A DNA stretch of 64,000 nucleotides, from contig JBQCFW010000114.1 in assembly GCA_051958655.1 (NCBI GenBank), positions 8,319-72,318 of the forward strand, in the 5' to 3' direction. Source of the stretch: Agriterribacter sp. (lineage in GTDB: Bacteria; Bacteroidota; Bacteroidia; Chitinophagales; Chitinophagaceae). The position numbers were made by a program, and so were the translations under genes. The notes under the pieces were generated by a model, which saw only the letters and a program-made list of their open reading frames with translations, was not told where the DNA came from and made no database searches. This document shows positions 32,396 through 38,099 of this stretch, piece by piece (the first letter of the stretch is position 1; every line of letters starts with the position of its first letter).

Positions 32396-33117
32396 TACAG
32401 CAAACCGCTGCAAAAATATACCTGGCGCAGGAACGCGGCTGTAACGAGAATGCCTGCATGAGAAGTTACAGCACTTTCAACTTCGGCAATTTCAACCATG
32501 CACATAAGCAACCCTTCAGCAATTTGTATGTTTGGAATGATGATACGCTGGCACCAGGACAATCGATAAAAACCTATATTGATAAAGATGGGTATATCGT
32601 TTTTATTCCTTTGGTGGGAACCATAACATACAGGCATAACCGCGAAGACAATGTGGTGATAGATGCAGGGCAGGTATATATAAGCTATGTTCGCAGCGGA
32701 ACCGTGGTGGAAGTAACAAACAGTTTAAGCGAAGCGCTCGTTAATTTTTTGCATATTAGGATTGCCGCAGTTAAAGCGGATAATTCAGAAGACACAGCCC
32801 TGCTCAAATTCGATATCGATGCAAATAAACACGATTGGGTTACAATAAGCGCTGTATATGGCAGCAAATTAGTTGATAAGCTTCCTTTTTACATTGCTAT
32901 TGCAAAACTCGGTGGCAGGAGCGAGGTTGGCTATACATTGAGGAACGAAGGAAATGCTGTTTTTGCTTTTTCGGTTGAAGGCGCTTTTGAAGTGCAGAAC
33001 CGCCTGTTGCACCAAAGAGACGGGCTGGCGTTGTGGGATGTGCCTATTGTTGAGCTGGAAGCATTGAGTAATCATGCAATTATTATTTTGTTTGAAATGC
33101 CACTTAGGCAATCATAA
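32392..33117 (+). CDS. Pirin-like (YhhW-type) bicupin protein
   Basis: RSYSTFNF, VWNDDTLAPG, GAFEVQNRLLHQRDGLALW; start MIQQ at 32392. Confidence 0.8.
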   Translation: MIQQTAAKIYLAQERGCNENACMRSYSTFNFGNFNHAHKQPFSNLYVWNDDTLAPGQSIKTYIDKDGYIVFIPLVGTITYRHNREDNVVIDAGQVYISYVRSGTVVEVTNSLSEALVNFLHIRIAAVKADNSEDTALLKFDIDANKHDWVTISAVYGSKLVDKLPFYIAIAKLGGRSEVGYTLRNEGNAVFAFSVEGAFEVQNRLLHQRDGLALWDVPIVELEALSNHAIIILFEMPLRQS

Positions 33118-33756
33118 CAGTTGTTGCAGCTGGCTGATAAAGTCAGTTCTTTGAATCATTTCAGCACCCAGGCTTTCCAGGTGGGGCGTATATACCTGGC
33201 AGTCAATCAGCACAACCGCTTCCTGGTTTAAATGTTCCACATATTTAATAAAGGCAAATTTGCTGGCATTGCTGGCGTGGCTGAACATGCTTTCTCCAAA
33301 AAAAACTTTTCCCAGTCGTATGCCGTATAAGCCGCCCACCAATTTTTCGTTTAGCCACGCTTCGGCGCTGTGTGCAAACCCTGCTTCGTGCATTTTGCAA
33401 TAGGCTCTTTCCACCTCGTCGGTTATCCACGTACCGGTTTGGCCCGGCCTGAAACTGGTTTTGCAGTTGCGGATAACGGCGGCAAAATCCTGGTTGATGG
33501 TAAACCGGAAGCTCTCTTTCCGGATGAGTTGCTGCATGCTTTTGCTCACCTTCAGTTTTTCAGGAAAAAGCACAAACCGGGGATCGGGGCACCACCAAAG
33601 CGGCACATCTCCCTCATACCACGGAAAAATTCCGTTCCTGTATGCCAGCAGCAGTCTTTCCACAGAAAGGTCGCCCCCCATTGCCAGCAATCCATCTGGT
33701 TCTGCCAGGTTTACGGGAGGGAATATCAGTTCGCTTCTCAACGCAAAAACCGCCAT
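33112..33756 (-). CDS. aat: Leucyl/phenylalanyl-tRNA-protein transferase
   Basis: GLLAMGGDLS..RLLLAYRNGIFPW, WWCPDPR, GTWIT, FFGESMF, IDCQ. Confidence 0.95.
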   Translation of the reverse strand: MAVFALRSELIFPPVNLAEPDGLLAMGGDLSVERLLLAYRNGIFPWYEGDVPLWWCPDPRFVLFPEKLKVSKSMQQLIRKESFRFTINQDFAAVIRNCKTSFRPGQTGTWITDEVERAYCKMHEAGFAHSAEAWLNEKLVGGLYGIRLGKVFFGESMFSHASNASKFAFIKYVEHLNQEAVVLIDCQVYTPHLESLGAEMIQRTDFISQLQQLL

Positions 33757-33864
33757 GCCGCGAAGGTAATAAAGAGAGCAATAGCCGATATGTATAATTT
33801 GTTGCATGTGTGCCGGATAACCGTTTGCCACTTTTTTAAACAGGTTTAAAAAAAACTGCGCTTT

Positions 33865-33894
33865 GTGCAACGGAATATGGTGTAGCATTGTCAC
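33865..33894 (+). promoter_or_regulatory. Putative ECF sigma promoter, copy 1
   Basis: GTGCAACGG-N14-TTGTCAC, 17 nt before the sigma ATG; same motif and spacing at 36069. Confidence 0.7.
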
Positions 33895-33911
33895 CTTATT
33901 TGTAGATCCGG

Positions 33912-34475
33912 ATGACAGATTATCAACAACTGGTAAGGGATTGCCTAAAAGGAAAAGTATCCGCCCAGCAAAAGCTGTATGAGCTTTTTGCCGAGCAGAT
34001 GCTGGCTATTTGCTATCGATATACCAAATCGCTGGCAGATGCCGAGGATGTATTACAGGAAGGCTTTGTAAAAGTGTTCAAATACCTGCACCAATACCGC
34101 TCTGAAGGTGAACTGGGTGCCTGGGTACGACGCATTATGGTGAATACAGCTATTAACTATTTAAAACAAAACAGTAAGTATCAATACGATCTGTCGTTTA
34201 CAGATCTCACATTGCACCCTGTTTCGGAAGACAATCCGCAGGTGCATATGCAGGCAAAAGAGCTGGCCAACCTGGTGAGGCAGTTGCCCACCGGGTATCA
34301 AACAGTATTTAACATGCATGCAGTAGAGGGGTATACCCACGTAGAAATTGGAGAGATACTGGGTATAAATGAAGGCACTTCCCGCTCACAATATATGCGG
34401 GCAAGAAATCTGCTGATAAGCTGGATTGAAAAACATTCTGTAGAATCTAAACTGGGACAATATGCCGGAAAATGA
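33912..34475 (+). CDS. ECF RNA polymerase sigma factor
   Basis: AEDVLQEGFVKVF, WVRRIMVNTA, region 4 HVEIGEILGINEGTSRSQ. Confidence 0.95.
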   Translation: MTDYQQLVRDCLKGKVSAQQKLYELFAEQMLAICYRYTKSLADAEDVLQEGFVKVFKYLHQYRSEGELGAWVRRIMVNTAINYLKQNSKYQYDLSFTDLTLHPVSEDNPQVHMQAKELANLVRQLPTGYQTVFNMHAVEGYTHVEIGEILGINEGTSRSQYMRARNLLISWIEKHSVESKLGQYAGK

Positions 34476-36000
34476 GTTTGAAAAGCAGGTGCAGCAGATC
34501 TTCGGCGATATGCGGCTGAAGCCATCTGACGCGGTATGGTCCAAAGTACGGGAACGGGTAAGCCATGAAAAGAAACGCCGGCGGATGCTGGTGTGGCTGC
34601 CGGCAGCATTGCTGCTGCTGGGTGGCGGTATGTATTGGGCTTTGGACACTAACAATTCCCTGCAAAAAAACAAGCATGAGGCAGAAGCTGTTGCCAATGC
34701 AGGCAATAGCTCCGAAGCCGTTGGCTCCAACAATGCCCACCCGCAAGCCGCCGATGCGCCTGAAAACAATAGCGGGAATACGCCATCACAAACTGCGCCG
34801 GGTGCTGCGCTGCCAAACGAAAGCAGCAAAAGTAAGCCTGGAGATATCCGTGAGGCTGAGTTACCTCCTGCCGCCACCACTACCCAACAGCAGGTAAACA
34901 AAAGCATCAGTTCCGGTGCTGCCAGCAATGGGCGCAGCTTACCCGTTAATGAAGCGGCAGGAAAAAAACTTATTCATCTGCAAAACAAGCCCGCGCAAAA
35001 AAATACAGTGGCGGATGATGTAAATACCAGCGTCATTAATGTAGGCGGCCAGGAAACTGCAACCTCAAATAATACAGACCAATCGTTGTTACCTGTGTTG
35101 GGAACATACCAATACGTTGATGGATATGAAGGGTTGAAAGACATAGCTGGCGAAAAAGAACTAAAGCATTTTGATGCAAAAAACAACAAGCCCGTTATAA
35201 AGCTCGCCAAAAGAAAATCGTGGGAGTGGGGCGTAACTGCTCAGGCAGGTGTATCAATGGTTGGCAAAGGGCTGTCAAACATTTTCAAAAACGGACTGTT
35301 TGAAAAGGCCGAAAGCCTTGATTACATGCAATATGCTACGCCCGCTACACCCAATGGCAATTTTTTGGGCAGCCAGGGACAAGGTAATTTGGTGGCTGCC
35401 GCGCCCGCGCCCGCTTCGGCTGTAAAAGCAGGTATGGCGTGGAATGCAGGCATATTTGGCAAATGGCATGTTAGGCAAAAGCTTGCACTTACTTTTGGAG
35501 CAGAATACAATTTATATACTACCAACAGGGAAGTAGGCAATATTGTGGACCCTCAGTATTTTAACACAAACAACAGCAATGTCTCTGCTGATGCAAATGC
35601 AAGGTTTGCCGCTTATTATACCGGGAGCGACGGCATAAATTATACCAACCGCTATCACTTCGTGCAGGTTCCGGTGGGCATTCAATGGCAACTTAACAAA
35701 GGAATTAAAGTGCCGCCTGTCCAGTTAGATGCAGGTTTGGTATTTGGGTATCTTGTTAGTACCAACGCGGTGCACTACAAGGGAGGCGTTTATTACGAAG
35801 ACAAGAGCCTGTTCAATAAATTCCAGACAGGATTGTATGCCGGGTTCTCCGTAAAGCTGTTTCAACATGCACAACGGCCATTGTATATTGGCCCAACGGT
35901 GCAATACAATCTCTCGGGTGTAGCAAAACCTTCATCGGGAATTAAACAGAACTTTGTATATGGCGGTTTAAAAGCACAATGGGTTTTGTTTAAGAACTGA
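34462..36000 (+). CDS. Dual-membrane-spanning (Dma-like) anti-sigma factor: N-terminal anti-sigma segment, TM helix, disordered linker, outer-membrane beta-barrel
   Basis: NEFEKQVQQ...KPSDAVWSKV, RRR-preceded TM helix, about 190 aa A/N/S/P/Q-rich linker, C-terminal amphipathic strands ending QWVLF; overlaps the sigma stop. Confidence 0.8.
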   Translation: MPENEFEKQVQQIFGDMRLKPSDAVWSKVRERVSHEKKRRRMLVWLPAALLLLGGGMYWALDTNNSLQKNKHEAEAVANAGNSSEAVGSNNAHPQAADAPENNSGNTPSQTAPGAALPNESSKSKPGDIREAELPPAATTTQQQVNKSISSGAASNGRSLPVNEAAGKKLIHLQNKPAQKNTVADDVNTSVINVGGQETATSNNTDQSLLPVLGTYQYVDGYEGLKDIAGEKELKHFDAKNNKPVIKLAKRKSWEWGVTAQAGVSMVGKGLSNIFKNGLFEKAESLDYMQYATPATPNGNFLGSQGQGNLVAAAPAPASAVKAGMAWNAGIFGKWHVRQKLALTFGAEYNLYTTNREVGNIVDPQYFNTNNSNVSADANARFAAYYTGSDGINYTNRYHFVQVPVGIQWQLNKGIKVPPVQLDAGLVFGYLVSTNAVHYKGGVYYEDKSLFNKFQTGLYAGFSVKLFQHAQRPLYIGPTVQYNLSGVAKPSSGIKQNFVYGGLKAQWVLFKN

Positions 36001-36068
36001 GCTGAATAAATATTTTTTGAAAATGACGGACCAAATGCTCCGTCATTTTTTATTTTATTTAACAGGCA

Positions 36069-36098
36069 GTGCAACGGCGATGTTATACGGTTTGTCAC
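36069..36098 (+). promoter_or_regulatory. Putative ECF sigma promoter, copy 2
   Basis: GTGCAACGG-N14-TTGTCAC, 11 nt before the ATG at 36110. Confidence 0.7.
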
Positions 36099-36109
36099 GG
36101 TTTAAACTT

Positions 36110-37402
36110 ATGTATATGCCCAAAATTAGTTCAACCGCGAGTTTGTTGCTGCTAACTGTATTAGTGGCTTTGCAAAGCTGTGTTAAAGACAGGTGCACAC
36201 AAACCTACAGCTATTTCAGTCCCGTATACAAAACCTCCGAAGCTGTAAGAGCCAATATTAAAAGCAATGAGCCAAAAACGCTGGAACGAACCGGGAAGCT
36301 ATATATAAGGGGCAATTACATTTTTTTGAATGAAGTAGACAAAGGCATACATGTAATAAACAATGCTAATCCCGCCGATCCCGTAAACGTTGCGTTCATC
36401 GATATTCCGGGTAACATGGATATGGCAGTAAAAGGCAACATATTGTATGCAGATGCCTATACCGATTTAATGACCATTGATATTACTGATCCACTCAAAG
36501 CCAAATTGATAAGCGTTACAGAAAATGCTTTTCCTTACCGCCAGTATTACGGAGCATTTTATGCAGATACTTCTATGGTAATTGTGGATTGGGTAAAACG
36601 CGATACTACTGTTGATATGGACTGTGGTAATGGCGGCTTTTTTGGAATTGAGCTCAATAAGAAAGATGCATTTCTGTACAACGATGTAGCGGCATACTAC
36701 AATACATCAGCAGAAAGTCTCTCATCGGCAGCAAGCGTATCGCCTTTTGGTGTAGGTGGATCGATGGCAAGGTTTGCAATCGTAGAAAATTACCTGTACG
36801 CCGTAACGCTCAGCAACCTGAATGTTTTTTCTATTGCTGCACCACAAACACCTTCTTTCAATAATACGAAGGCGATAGGAATGAATATCGAAACAATTTA
36901 TCCCTTTAAAAATAAATTGTTCATAGGTTCTACCAACGGCATGTTCATTTATGATATTTCCAACGGCGGCGATCCTGTAAAGCAGGGCAGCTTTGCGCAC
37001 GTTGCCAGTTGCGACCCGGTTATTGCCGACGATGCATATGCTTATGTTACACTCCGCTCGGGCAATAGCTGCAACGGCTTCACCAACCAGATGGAAGTGC
37101 TCGATATTGCCGATGTCAACAATCCATCGCTTGTAAAAACCTATCCAATGACCAACCCCTTTGGACTGTCGAAAGATGGGAACCTGCTTTTTATATGCGA
37201 TGGAGCAGACGGTTTAAAGATTTATAATGCGGCCGATGTAAACAACATTAAGCTCATTACTACGGTGGGAGGTTTTACTGCATACGACGTAATAGCCAGG
37301 AACGGCGTAGCCCTGGTAGTAAGTACCGATGGGCTGCATCAATACAGCTATAATAATGTGAATGATATACAATTGCTAAGTAAAATACAAATTACAAAAT
37401 GA
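36110..37402 (+). CDS. LVIVD-repeat (beta-propeller-like) lipoprotein
   Basis: Lipobox LQSC; GNYIFLNEVDKGIHVI, IPGNMDMAV, GVGGSMARFAI, SCDPVIA, YAYVTLRSG. Confidence 0.85.
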   Translation: MYMPKISSTASLLLLTVLVALQSCVKDRCTQTYSYFSPVYKTSEAVRANIKSNEPKTLERTGKLYIRGNYIFLNEVDKGIHVINNANPADPVNVAFIDIPGNMDMAVKGNILYADAYTDLMTIDITDPLKAKLISVTENAFPYRQYYGAFYADTSMVIVDWVKRDTTVDMDCGNGGFFGIELNKKDAFLYNDVAAYYNTSAESLSSAASVSPFGVGGSMARFAIVENYLYAVTLSNLNVFSIAAPQTPSFNNTKAIGMNIETIYPFKNKLFIGSTNGMFIYDISNGGDPVKQGSFAHVASCDPVIADDAYAYVTLRSGNSCNGFTNQMEVLDIADVNNPSLVKTYPMTNPFGLSKDGNLLFICDGADGLKIYNAADVNNIKLITTVGGFTAYDVIARNGVALVVSTDGLHQYSYNNVNDIQLLSKIQITK

Positions 37403-37998
37403 AAAACATTTTAATAATTAGCCTCCTGCTTCTTGCACTGAGCTACGCAGCGCAGGCTCAACAACCCGGAAAGGTTGTATTCCGCTCCATTCAACAAGTA
37501 TCGCTTATTAACGGCAACGATGCAGTATCTGCCGGTTTGCAAACTGTAAATGGTTTTGCGCTGAAGGGATGGTTTGCCGGAGCAGGGGTGGGGCTCGATT
37601 TTTACCGCTACCGCTCGGTGCCGCTGTTTGTCGACCTGCGCAAAGAAATTCCCCTGAAGAAGAACAAAATATTTGTATATGCTGATGGCGGCTACAATTT
37701 GCCCTGGGTAAAGAACCAGGATGTTTACAGGGAGTGGGCAAATAATAGCTTTTACAAAGAAGAATATGATTACAAAGGAGGGGCATACATAGACGCGGGG
37801 TTTGGGTATTCCATCGGGTTTAAGTCAGGGAATGCTTTTCTGCTCAGCGCAGGTTATTCCTACAAAGCGTTCGACGCTTCTAAAACCACCACCACCAAAT
37901 GGAGCATAGGAACACCGCAGGAAAGCGGGCAAACCGATGTTCAGAAATTTTCGTATCGGTTCAACAGGGTAATGGTGAAAATAGGCTGGCAATTTTAA
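37399..37998 (+). CDS. Outer-membrane beta-barrel protein
   Basis: Signal peptide AQA; GAGVGLDFY, VPLFVDLR, terminal KIGWQF; ATGA overlap with the LVIVD gene. Confidence 0.8.
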   Translation: MKNILIISLLLLALSYAAQAQQPGKVVFRSIQQVSLINGNDAVSAGLQTVNGFALKGWFAGAGVGLDFYRYRSVPLFVDLRKEIPLKKNKIFVYADGGYNLPWVKNQDVYREWANNSFYKEEYDYKGGAYIDAGFGYSIGFKSGNAFLLSAGYSYKAFDASKTTTTKWSIGTPQESGQTDVQKFSYRFNRVMVKIGWQF

Positions 37999-38016
37999 GT
38001 GAAAACAGCATTGCAC

Positions 38017-38099
38017 ATGAAATATTTTTATTTATTGCAGTGATGTTGATAAGGGCAGGCGGCTGCGAAAAAGACAAAGATGCTGCGGGAACAAGTTAA
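38017..38099 (+). pseudogene. Possible frameshifted lipoprotein remnant
   Basis: Adding one T to the T5 run at 38025-38029 gives MKYFLFIAVMLIRAGGCEKDKD (lipobox); followed by a stop and heptamer repeats. Confidence 0.3.

Follow-up and report, generated by a model that had tools for sequence, protein, structure and literature searches.

A candidate Dma-type sigma/anti-sigma system in Agriterribacter and its likely output, an LVIVD lipoprotein and a small beta-barrel

What does a predicted envelope-spanning anti-sigma factor control in a soil bacterium? The question is raised by a locus of Agriterribacter sp. (Chitinophagaceae), where the gene of an extracytoplasmic function (ECF) sigma factor is followed by that of a 512-residue protein resembling the Dma anti-sigma factors, and then by genes for an LVIVD-repeat lipoprotein and a small beta-barrel protein. 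The locus lies in a stretch of 64,000 nt, here called the window, of contig JBQCFW010000114.1 (GCA_051958655.1, positions 8,319–72,318 of the forward strand), and the whole genome of 6.6 Mb was scanned as well. The answer that we consider likely, and hold with good confidence, is that the sigma factor is autoregulated, is held by an envelope-spanning anti-sigma factor and, in addition to its own operon, drives the LVIVD-barrel operon and a few lipoprotein genes. The gene structure, the folds, the geometry of the promoters, their conservation and the membership of the regulon were established in silico.

The sigma gene and the LVIVD gene are preceded by the same motif. The initial annotation had claimed this, and exact copies of GTGCAACGG-N14-TTGTCAC are indeed present at 33865–33894 and 36069–36098, both on the plus strand. 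A third match is not found in the window even when two mismatches are allowed (chance expectation 0.02), two matches were obtained in 0 of 100 shuffles, and the two copies are the sole full matches in the genome. The core of the motif is TGCAACG-N15-TTGTCA. In the first copy, a candidate promoter of ECF type for the sigma/anti-sigma operon, TGCAACG (-35-like) is located at 33866–33872 and TTGTCA (-10-like) at 33888–33893, ending 18 nt upstream of the sigma ATG at 33912. In the second copy, the candidate promoter of the LVIVD-barrel operon, the same elements are located at 36070–36076 and 36092–36097, and TTGTCA ends 19 nt or 25 nt upstream of the candidate LVIVD start codons at 36113 and 36119, respectively. 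Between the anti-sigma gene and this second copy lies an intrinsic-terminator-like hairpin on the plus strand, with a 12-bp stem followed by a T run (36019–36060). With AAC in the -35 element, GTC in the -10 element and a spacer of fixed length between them, the motif has the geometry of ECF promoters.

Conservation of the motif upstream of orthologues had been set beforehand as a test, and the motif passed it. One genome per species was used, giving 80 named Chitinophagales loci from Agriterribacter, Terrimonas, Pseudobacter, Puia, Segetibacter, Ferruginibacter, Ginsengibacter, Flavisolibacter, Paraflavitalea and other Chitinophagales. The motif precedes the sigma gene in 76 of the 76 loci that have a readable upstream region. 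The 75 tabulated sites are 28 nt long, with a median distance of 18 nt to the ATG; positions 2–6 (GCAAC) and 24–28 (TGTCA) are the same in all of them, and in the variable spacer the most frequent base reaches at most ~55% at any position. Before the LVIVD gene the strict pattern is found at 47 of 61 loci, and most of the remaining upstream regions carry one-base variants, for example GCCAC or AGTCA. When the 883 kb of the 80 loci are searched with GCAACN-N15-NTGTCA, 126 matches are obtained versus 1 for the reversed control, and each locus contains either one (sigma) or two (sigma and LVIVD). Within the genus, the motif stands before the sigma gene in 13 of 14 genomes with a near variant in the fourteenth, and TGCAAYG-N15-TTGTCA gives 35 matches versus 2 for the control in eight whole genomes.

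A contig of 3434 bp filed under a 'Bacteroides fragilis' metagenome-assembled genome (CALSAT010000454.1, our locus L114) encodes a sigma factor 69% identical to the one in the window, an anti-sigma factor and, with the Chitinophagales motif, the first part of an LVIVD protein. Probably this contig was mis-binned and belongs to the Chitinophagaceae.

The four genes travel together in much of the order and to some extent outside it. In all 14 genomes of the genus the module is flanked in the same order, with aat on one side of sigma, partner, LVIVD and barrel and queG on the other. Enough downstream DNA is available for 68 of the named Chitinophagales loci: LVIVD and barrel genes follow the anti-sigma gene in 52 of these, five have the barrel only, without LVIVD and without the second promoter, and 11 have neither. 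LVIVD-barrel pairs are also found apart from the switch. At the level of the class, 39 of 151 sampled Bacteroidia genomes contain the LVIVD lipoprotein family, and in at least four genomes, from four families besides the Chitinophagales ones, the LVIVD gene adjoins a sigma/barrel-tailed pair, the small barrel being recognisable in two. The same-strand order is kept in three of these four loci; in the fourth (G322) the LVIVD gene is divergent. As the anti-sigma profile is weak outside the Chitinophagales, the count of four families is a lower bound.

The loci from these other families also bear on the promoter. In at least two of the four families a lineage-specific variant of the motif stands before both the sigma and the LVIVD genes, TGCAAGG...CATCT in the genome of one family and CCAACC...GTCTAA in that of another. 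Since the two motifs co-vary between families, the adjacent sigma factor probably reads both, and this is the best available argument that the LVIVD operon belongs to the switch. Taken with the conservation within the Chitinophagales, the comparative evidence for the motif as a promoter of the adjacent sigma factor is strong.

Which other genes would be under the same control? A weight matrix made from 23 orthologous sites gives 10 sites of at least 20 bits in the genome, versus 0.7 in shuffled sequence. Two of these strong sites are the ones in the window, and most lie 12–45 nt upstream of lipoprotein genes. One is found 18 nt upstream of the gene of a second LVIVD lipoprotein (contig C123), others 19–45 nt upstream of genes for lipoproteins of 270, 239, 121, 204 and 103 aa, and one upstream of the gene of a DUF2911 secreted protein. 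The only conserved candidate target without an exported product is a RidA/L-PSP-like gene, whose 28-bit site (C12:7668–7696, minus strand) is located ~120–150 nt upstream, leaving a long leader; the orthologue in a relative is also preceded by a site (L136, G008:C1:378450–380100).

The genome has three LVIVD loci, the third of which is split and carries a one-base variant of the motif. In eight genomes of the genus, matches precede the sigma gene as well as the LVIVD genes of each of the three paralogue groups, and the orthologue of the 270-aa lipoprotein keeps its site in three relatives. Relatives also have the motif before the genes of a serpin lipoprotein (Serpin, 1.7e-105; L139, G012:C1:539420–541050) and of PD40-propeller and BNR/Ycf48-like propeller lipoproteins (L137, L143 and L140). 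Serpin, PD40 and BNR lipoproteins were found neither near the module nor elsewhere in the present genome, so these members of the regulon are lineage-specific. As predicted from its sites, the regulon is small, rich in lipoproteins and partly fluid, and the LVIVD lipoproteins are its constant members.

The first gene behind the second candidate promoter encodes a lipoprotein of 427 aa with LVIVD repeats, i.e., a beta-propeller (36119–37402, plus strand, with an alternative ATG at 36113). The match of the window protein to PF08309 is marginal, 21.5 bits versus a cut-off of 20.2; the family is matched by 33 of 33 aligned orthologues, the best at 4.7e-26. Its lipobox is LQSC, and Cys22 is followed by VKD. 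The lipobox and the pattern C-[VILMF]-K-D are kept in all 53 complete orthologues. Surface lipoproteins of Bacteroidota reportedly have an acidic export signal, K-(D/E)2 or S-(D/E)3, after the lipobox cysteine (Lauber et al. 2016, cited in PMC10927553). The pattern seen here has a single acidic residue and is only a partial match to such signals, and the surface position that the initial annotation gave the lipoprotein is a possibility. A sequence search of the PDB with the LVIVD protein matched no solved structure, and we know of no established function for the LVIVD repeat family.

The stop codon of the LVIVD gene shares an ATGA overlap with the start of the second gene (37399–37998, plus strand), which encodes a protein of 199 aa with a signal peptide, predicted to be a small outer-membrane beta-barrel. 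The AlphaFold2 model is all-beta with 8–10 strands and a predicted local distance difference test score (pLDDT) of 84. Foldseek aligns it to OmpW, NspA, the N-domain of OprF and the transmembrane domain of OmpA, with template modelling (TM) scores of 0.5–0.65, and the C-terminal GWQF is conserved, including the terminal Phe. No Pfam or NCBIfam family was matched, and homology to the barrel of the anti-sigma protein was not found (hhalign probability 8%). The output genes had been annotated initially as an LVIVD lipoprotein and a barrel, and both identifications stand, the former by PF08309 in all aligned orthologues and the latter by fold prediction and fold search. The propeller and the barrel probably act jointly as an outer-membrane pair.

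A split form of the LVIVD protein is widespread in Bacteroidia, in which the N-terminal and the C-terminal half are encoded by adjacent lipoprotein genes of ~180 and ~250 aa. The copy of the present genome is located at C68:26543–28618, with TGCAGCG-N15-CTGTCA (a one-base GCAGC variant) upstream and a gene for an exported protein of 246 aa downstream.

We now turn to the switch itself. The predicted Dma-type anti-sigma factor, named as such from its architecture and its position after the sigma gene, is encoded at 34462–36000 on the plus strand and overlaps the sigma gene by 14 nt (34462–34475). The pairing of the two genes is kept: a sigma gene is seen at 79 of the 80 loci, and the contig of the remaining one begins at the anti-sigma gene. 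Hydropathy analysis detects a single hydrophobic stretch (residues 43–61; transmembrane helix 43–62), and the KKRRR just before it fits an N-in topology. In the AlphaFold2 model, built on 43 homologues, helices are found at residues 5–15 and 23–62, residues 65–238 have a pLDDT below 50, i.e., a disordered linker of roughly 175 aa, and residues 253–511 form a beta-barrel of 8–10 strands with a pLDDT mostly above 85; drawn more generously, the periplasmic tether covers residues ~63–245 and the barrel ~250–512. The top Foldseek matches of this barrel in the PDB are OmpA, OmpW, OpcA, Ail, NspA and OmpX, at target-normalised TM scores of 0.5–0.62, and OMP_b-brl_2 (PF13568) is recorded on many homologues of the protein in the protein database.

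The best conserved part of the protein is its 42-aa head, with a column identity among homologues of 0.58 versus 0.15 for the linker, which is the least conserved part. E7, P21 and W26 are invariant in the head. The homologues are 446–552 aa long and the length of their linkers varies. Profile searches detected no known anti-sigma domain in the first 70 residues, and a PDB sequence search with the head returned nothing meaningful. The initial annotation had read the protein as a short N-terminal segment, one transmembrane helix, a low-complexity linker and a C-terminal barrel, and had likened it to the Dma proteins. AlphaFold2, Foldseek and hydropathy agree on the former, and fold prediction together with fold search agree with the published description of the Dma family (PMC10927553) on the latter. 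According to these models the 512-aa protein has the Dma architecture, by comparison with the description of Dma1 from Bacteroides thetaiotaomicron.

The sigma factor (187 aa, 33912–34475, plus strand) matches Sigma70_r2 (1.5e-16) and Sigma70_r4_2 (2.8e-14), scores above the cut-off of the generic TIGR02937, the only NCBIfam model for which this holds, and consists of the sigma-2 and sigma-4 regions only, as in group IV sigma factors. Its sequence matches in the PDB are SigE, SigW and RpoE, and its identity across the genus is 87–99%. NF058625, the PG0214-type sigma family, was considered as a specific assignment and rejected; the match is below the cut-off and unspecific, as this family matches ~49 sigma genes of the genome. 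ECF21 (Das/EcfO) sigma factors belong to Bacteroidota and are encoded beside a Dma-type partner (PMC13088901). The present sigma factor comes from this phylum and has such a partner adjacent to it, and its relatives are found in Agriterribacter, Terrimonas and other Chitinophagaceae.

At least two further loci of the genome, C112:17375–19358 and C113:12632–14451, contain an ECF sigma gene followed by the gene of a long protein with a single transmembrane helix and a barrel-like C-terminus. The C112 partner has the head motif DEFEK...PS..W in common with the anti-sigma protein of the window, and a gene for a lipoprotein of 211 aa follows downstream. Any of the three pairs may correspond to Dma1 of B. 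thetaiotaomicron.

Several observations weigh against the interpretation of the locus as a switch with an output of its own. OMP_b-brl_2 reaches 24 bits on the window anti-sigma protein, below the Pfam cut-off of 27, and the AlphaFold2 confidence of its head is only ~60; the binding of sigma by this head and the insertion of the barrel into the outer membrane are predictions. Nor is the output an obligatory part of the locus, as 16 of the 68 Chitinophagales loci are without the LVIVD gene, five of them keeping only the barrel. The genome has ~49 ECF sigma genes and at least the two further sigma/barrel-tailed pairs on C112 and C113, and the sequence upstream of the C112 sigma gene, GCAGCA-N14-TTGTCT, somewhat resembles the motif, so cross-recognition of some sites is possible. 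Finally, the sequencing runs that contain the locus are low-coverage DNA metagenomes of a ~98%-identical strain with even cover of the flanking genes, and the sole run guessed to be RNA gives one contig of 151 nt, inside the anti-sigma linker. Transcription starts are unreadable from these runs, and the case for the promoter therefore rests on comparative evidence.

The pattern of gene loss can also be read in another way. The LVIVD protein and the small barrel could act on the input or feedback side, for example as outer-membrane partners that set the stability of the Dma barrel, their induction resetting or tuning the switch. Proteins that modulate the regulon's own anti-sigma factor are known from some ECF regulons, and all components would here share one membrane. 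The barrel is linked to the anti-sigma gene at least as tightly as the LVIVD gene is, and in the five loci with sigma, Dma and barrel genes without LVIVD no separate promoter precedes the barrel gene. However, the same promoter also stands before LVIVD-barrel pairs and lone LVIVD genes far from any Dma gene, eleven loci keep the switch without either protein, and, going by the hhalign probability given above, the small barrel and the Dma barrel are not homologues. We regard a role of the pair in feedback as unlikely, though it is the alternative that survives best.

The many sigma factors of the genome raise a different doubt. The motif might be a real ECF promoter of which some or all copies outside the sigma operon are read by a paralogous ECF sigma factor, so that the LVIVD operon is not under the control of this switch alone. 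The number of ECF sigma genes, the 42–44% identity of the sigma factors in the other barrel-tailed pairs, the sequence upstream of the C112 sigma gene and the GCAGC variant at the split LVIVD locus on C68 all point in this direction. Against this, both hexamers and the spacing of the LVIVD site equal those of the site before the sigma gene in almost all lineages, and where the sequence does change between families (TGCAAGG...CATCT; CCAACC...GTCTAA) both sites change together. This makes a paralogous reader improbable. The 512-aa protein might also be just another outer-membrane protein rather than an anti-sigma factor, with a cleaved or uncleaved signal sequence and an incidental position. The lack of a known anti-sigma domain in the first 70 residues and the very short head speak for this, but its conserved segment of 42 residues with three invariant positions far exceeds the n-region of a signal peptide, its gene overlaps the sigma gene and keeps this pairing across 80 loci, and Dma1 was shown by experiment to sit in two membranes at full length and to bind Das1 with its N-terminus (PMC10927553); we consider this reading very improbable.

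The limits of the module were given too widely in the initial annotation, where it ends at 38099; that coordinate belongs to a spurious open reading frame, and the true end is at 37998. Downstream follows queG on the opposite strand. The upstream neighbour is aat (leucyl/phenylalanyl-tRNA protein transferase) on the minus strand, with a conserved start at 33750. With this start, the first motif falls within the 161-nt intergenic gap between the divergent aat and sigma genes. A longer minus-strand open reading frame (33112–33894), which has a GTG start at 33894 and spans the first motif, was rejected as an over-extended aat, as orthologue alignments and the Pfam match favour the ATG at 33750.

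How could an autoregulated sigma factor under an envelope-spanning partner work? By analogy with the Bacteroides systems, from which the binding of sigma, the span across two membranes, the proteolytic release and the type of stimulus are taken, we suggest the following. At rest, the 42-residue cytoplasmic head of the anti-sigma protein would hold the ECF sigma factor at the inner membrane, while the disordered tether would cross the periplasm and the small barrel would be anchored in the outer membrane. Damage to the outer membrane, or some signal there, would lead to degradation of the anti-sigma protein and to release of the sigma factor, which could then guide RNA polymerase to TGCAACG-N15-TTGTCA promoters. 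The one before the sigma operon would give positive feedback, the second, past the terminator, would drive the translationally coupled genes of the LVIVD lipoprotein and the small barrel, and copies outside the locus would drive the gene of the second LVIVD lipoprotein along with several more lipoprotein genes. 

It can further be speculated, tentatively, that the LVIVD lipoprotein and the barrel are the ancestral hard-wired Dma effector of the non-Bacteroidales Bacteroidia, an equivalent of the NigD lipoproteins of gut Bacteroides acting in outer-membrane remodelling or repair or in vesiculation once the sensor is tripped. The serpin lipoprotein encoded downstream of this promoter in one relative hints that proteases matter to the switch; on the same tentative reading, proteases that cut the tether or the exposed loops of the sensor may be its natural trigger. 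To our knowledge, Dma/Das is the only link in a single polypeptide between the bacterial surface and the transcription machinery, and we know of no identified signal or output function even in Bacteroides. An explicit promoter allows regulons to be read straight from genomes. The output described here is conserved and simple, one propeller lipoprotein and one small barrel, and is found in lineages with cultured soil representatives (Terrimonas sp. NS-102, with locus L063, is a cultured carrier), and a comparison of NigD-type with LVIVD-type systems could reveal what the pathway protects or builds. The LVIVD repeat family would also gain its first regulatory context.

Among the better known systems, the proposed switch is reminiscent of RpoE-RseA of Escherichia coli, where outer-membrane stress frees an ECF sigma factor, itself autoregulated, from an anti-sigma factor in the membrane. 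RpoE is a sequence relative of the window sigma factor, and in its promoter, too, the -35 element contains AAC and the spacer is fixed. However, RseA spans the inner membrane only and senses the outer membrane via DegS and unfolded porins, while here a single chain is predicted to reach the outer membrane. The FecA-FecR-FecI system, too, links a barrel in the outer membrane with an ECF sigma factor and an anti-sigma factor of the inner membrane. There, the barrel is a TonB-dependent transporter and a protein separate from the anti-sigma factor, whereas here both are part of one polypeptide and the barrel is small.

The closest parallels are within the Bacteroidota, the only phylum in which Das1-Dma1, EcfO-Reo and the present system are found. 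The Dma family, described in 2024, is defined by a head, a transmembrane helix, a disordered tether and a C-terminal beta-barrel, of eight strands in Dma1 (PMC10927553). Pardue et al. found that the N-terminus of Dma1 binds Das1, and that the protein is present at full length in the membranes, its C-terminal barrel being located in the outer one; the Das1/Dma1 regulon consists of NigD1, NigD2, whose gene adjoins the operon, and BT_1287 (PMC10927553). EcfO-Reo of Phocaeicola vulgatus controls three nigD genes and has been proposed as a sensor of outer-membrane stress (PMC13114119). In Das1-Dma1 (BT_4720/BT_4721) and in EcfO-Reo of B. fragilis and P. vulgatus, the sigma gene is followed by that of an anti-sigma factor with head, transmembrane helix, tether and small barrel, as here, and the regulon is small and largely made of lipoproteins, as in this genome. 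One lipoprotein gene adjoins the operon in B. thetaiotaomicron, NigD2/BT_4719, and LVIVD takes this position here. Das2-Dma2 (BT_1559/BT_1558) also resembles the present locus: its sigma and Dma genes share an operon with further genes without an assigned function, and these adjacent genes, BT_1557–1555, are the most induced upon deletion of the anti-sigma factor (PMC13088901). The output here has its own promoter after a terminator. The products downstream of Das2-Dma2 are a DUF4943, a DUF4858 and an enoyl-ACP-reductase-like protein, unlike the propeller lipoprotein and barrel found here.

The main difference from Das1-Dma1 is in the output, NigD there versus a two-gene operon of LVIVD and a dedicated small barrel here. 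NigD_N (PF12667) has no match in the whole genome, with B. thetaiotaomicron as a positive control; conversely, LVIVD has no match in B. thetaiotaomicron and three loci in this genome. The 151 sampled Bacteroidia genomes give 0 matches to NigD_N, again with a positive control, and the domain was therefore dropped as a marker of Bacteroidales in this sample; NigD may be confined to the Bacteroidales, or the sample may be without that order. By analogy, LVIVD and the barrel probably fill in this lineage the place of the NigD lipoproteins in Bacteroides.

How new is the system, then? The initial annotation had presented it as a Dma-type system in a non-gut lineage. The architecture bears out the type, but the lineage is not the first of its kind, as Dma1 homologues have been reported in 27 of 29 Bacteroidota, soil organisms included (PMC10927553). 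The other claim, that an output of LVIVD plus barrel had not been described, agrees with our literature searches, which retrieved no paper linking LVIVD proteins to ECF or Dma systems; nor is the promoter motif reported in the Bacteroides Dma/EcfO literature that was searched. The logic of the sensor and of the neighbouring lipoprotein is already known from Bacteroides, and the output pair and its promoter are newly described here.

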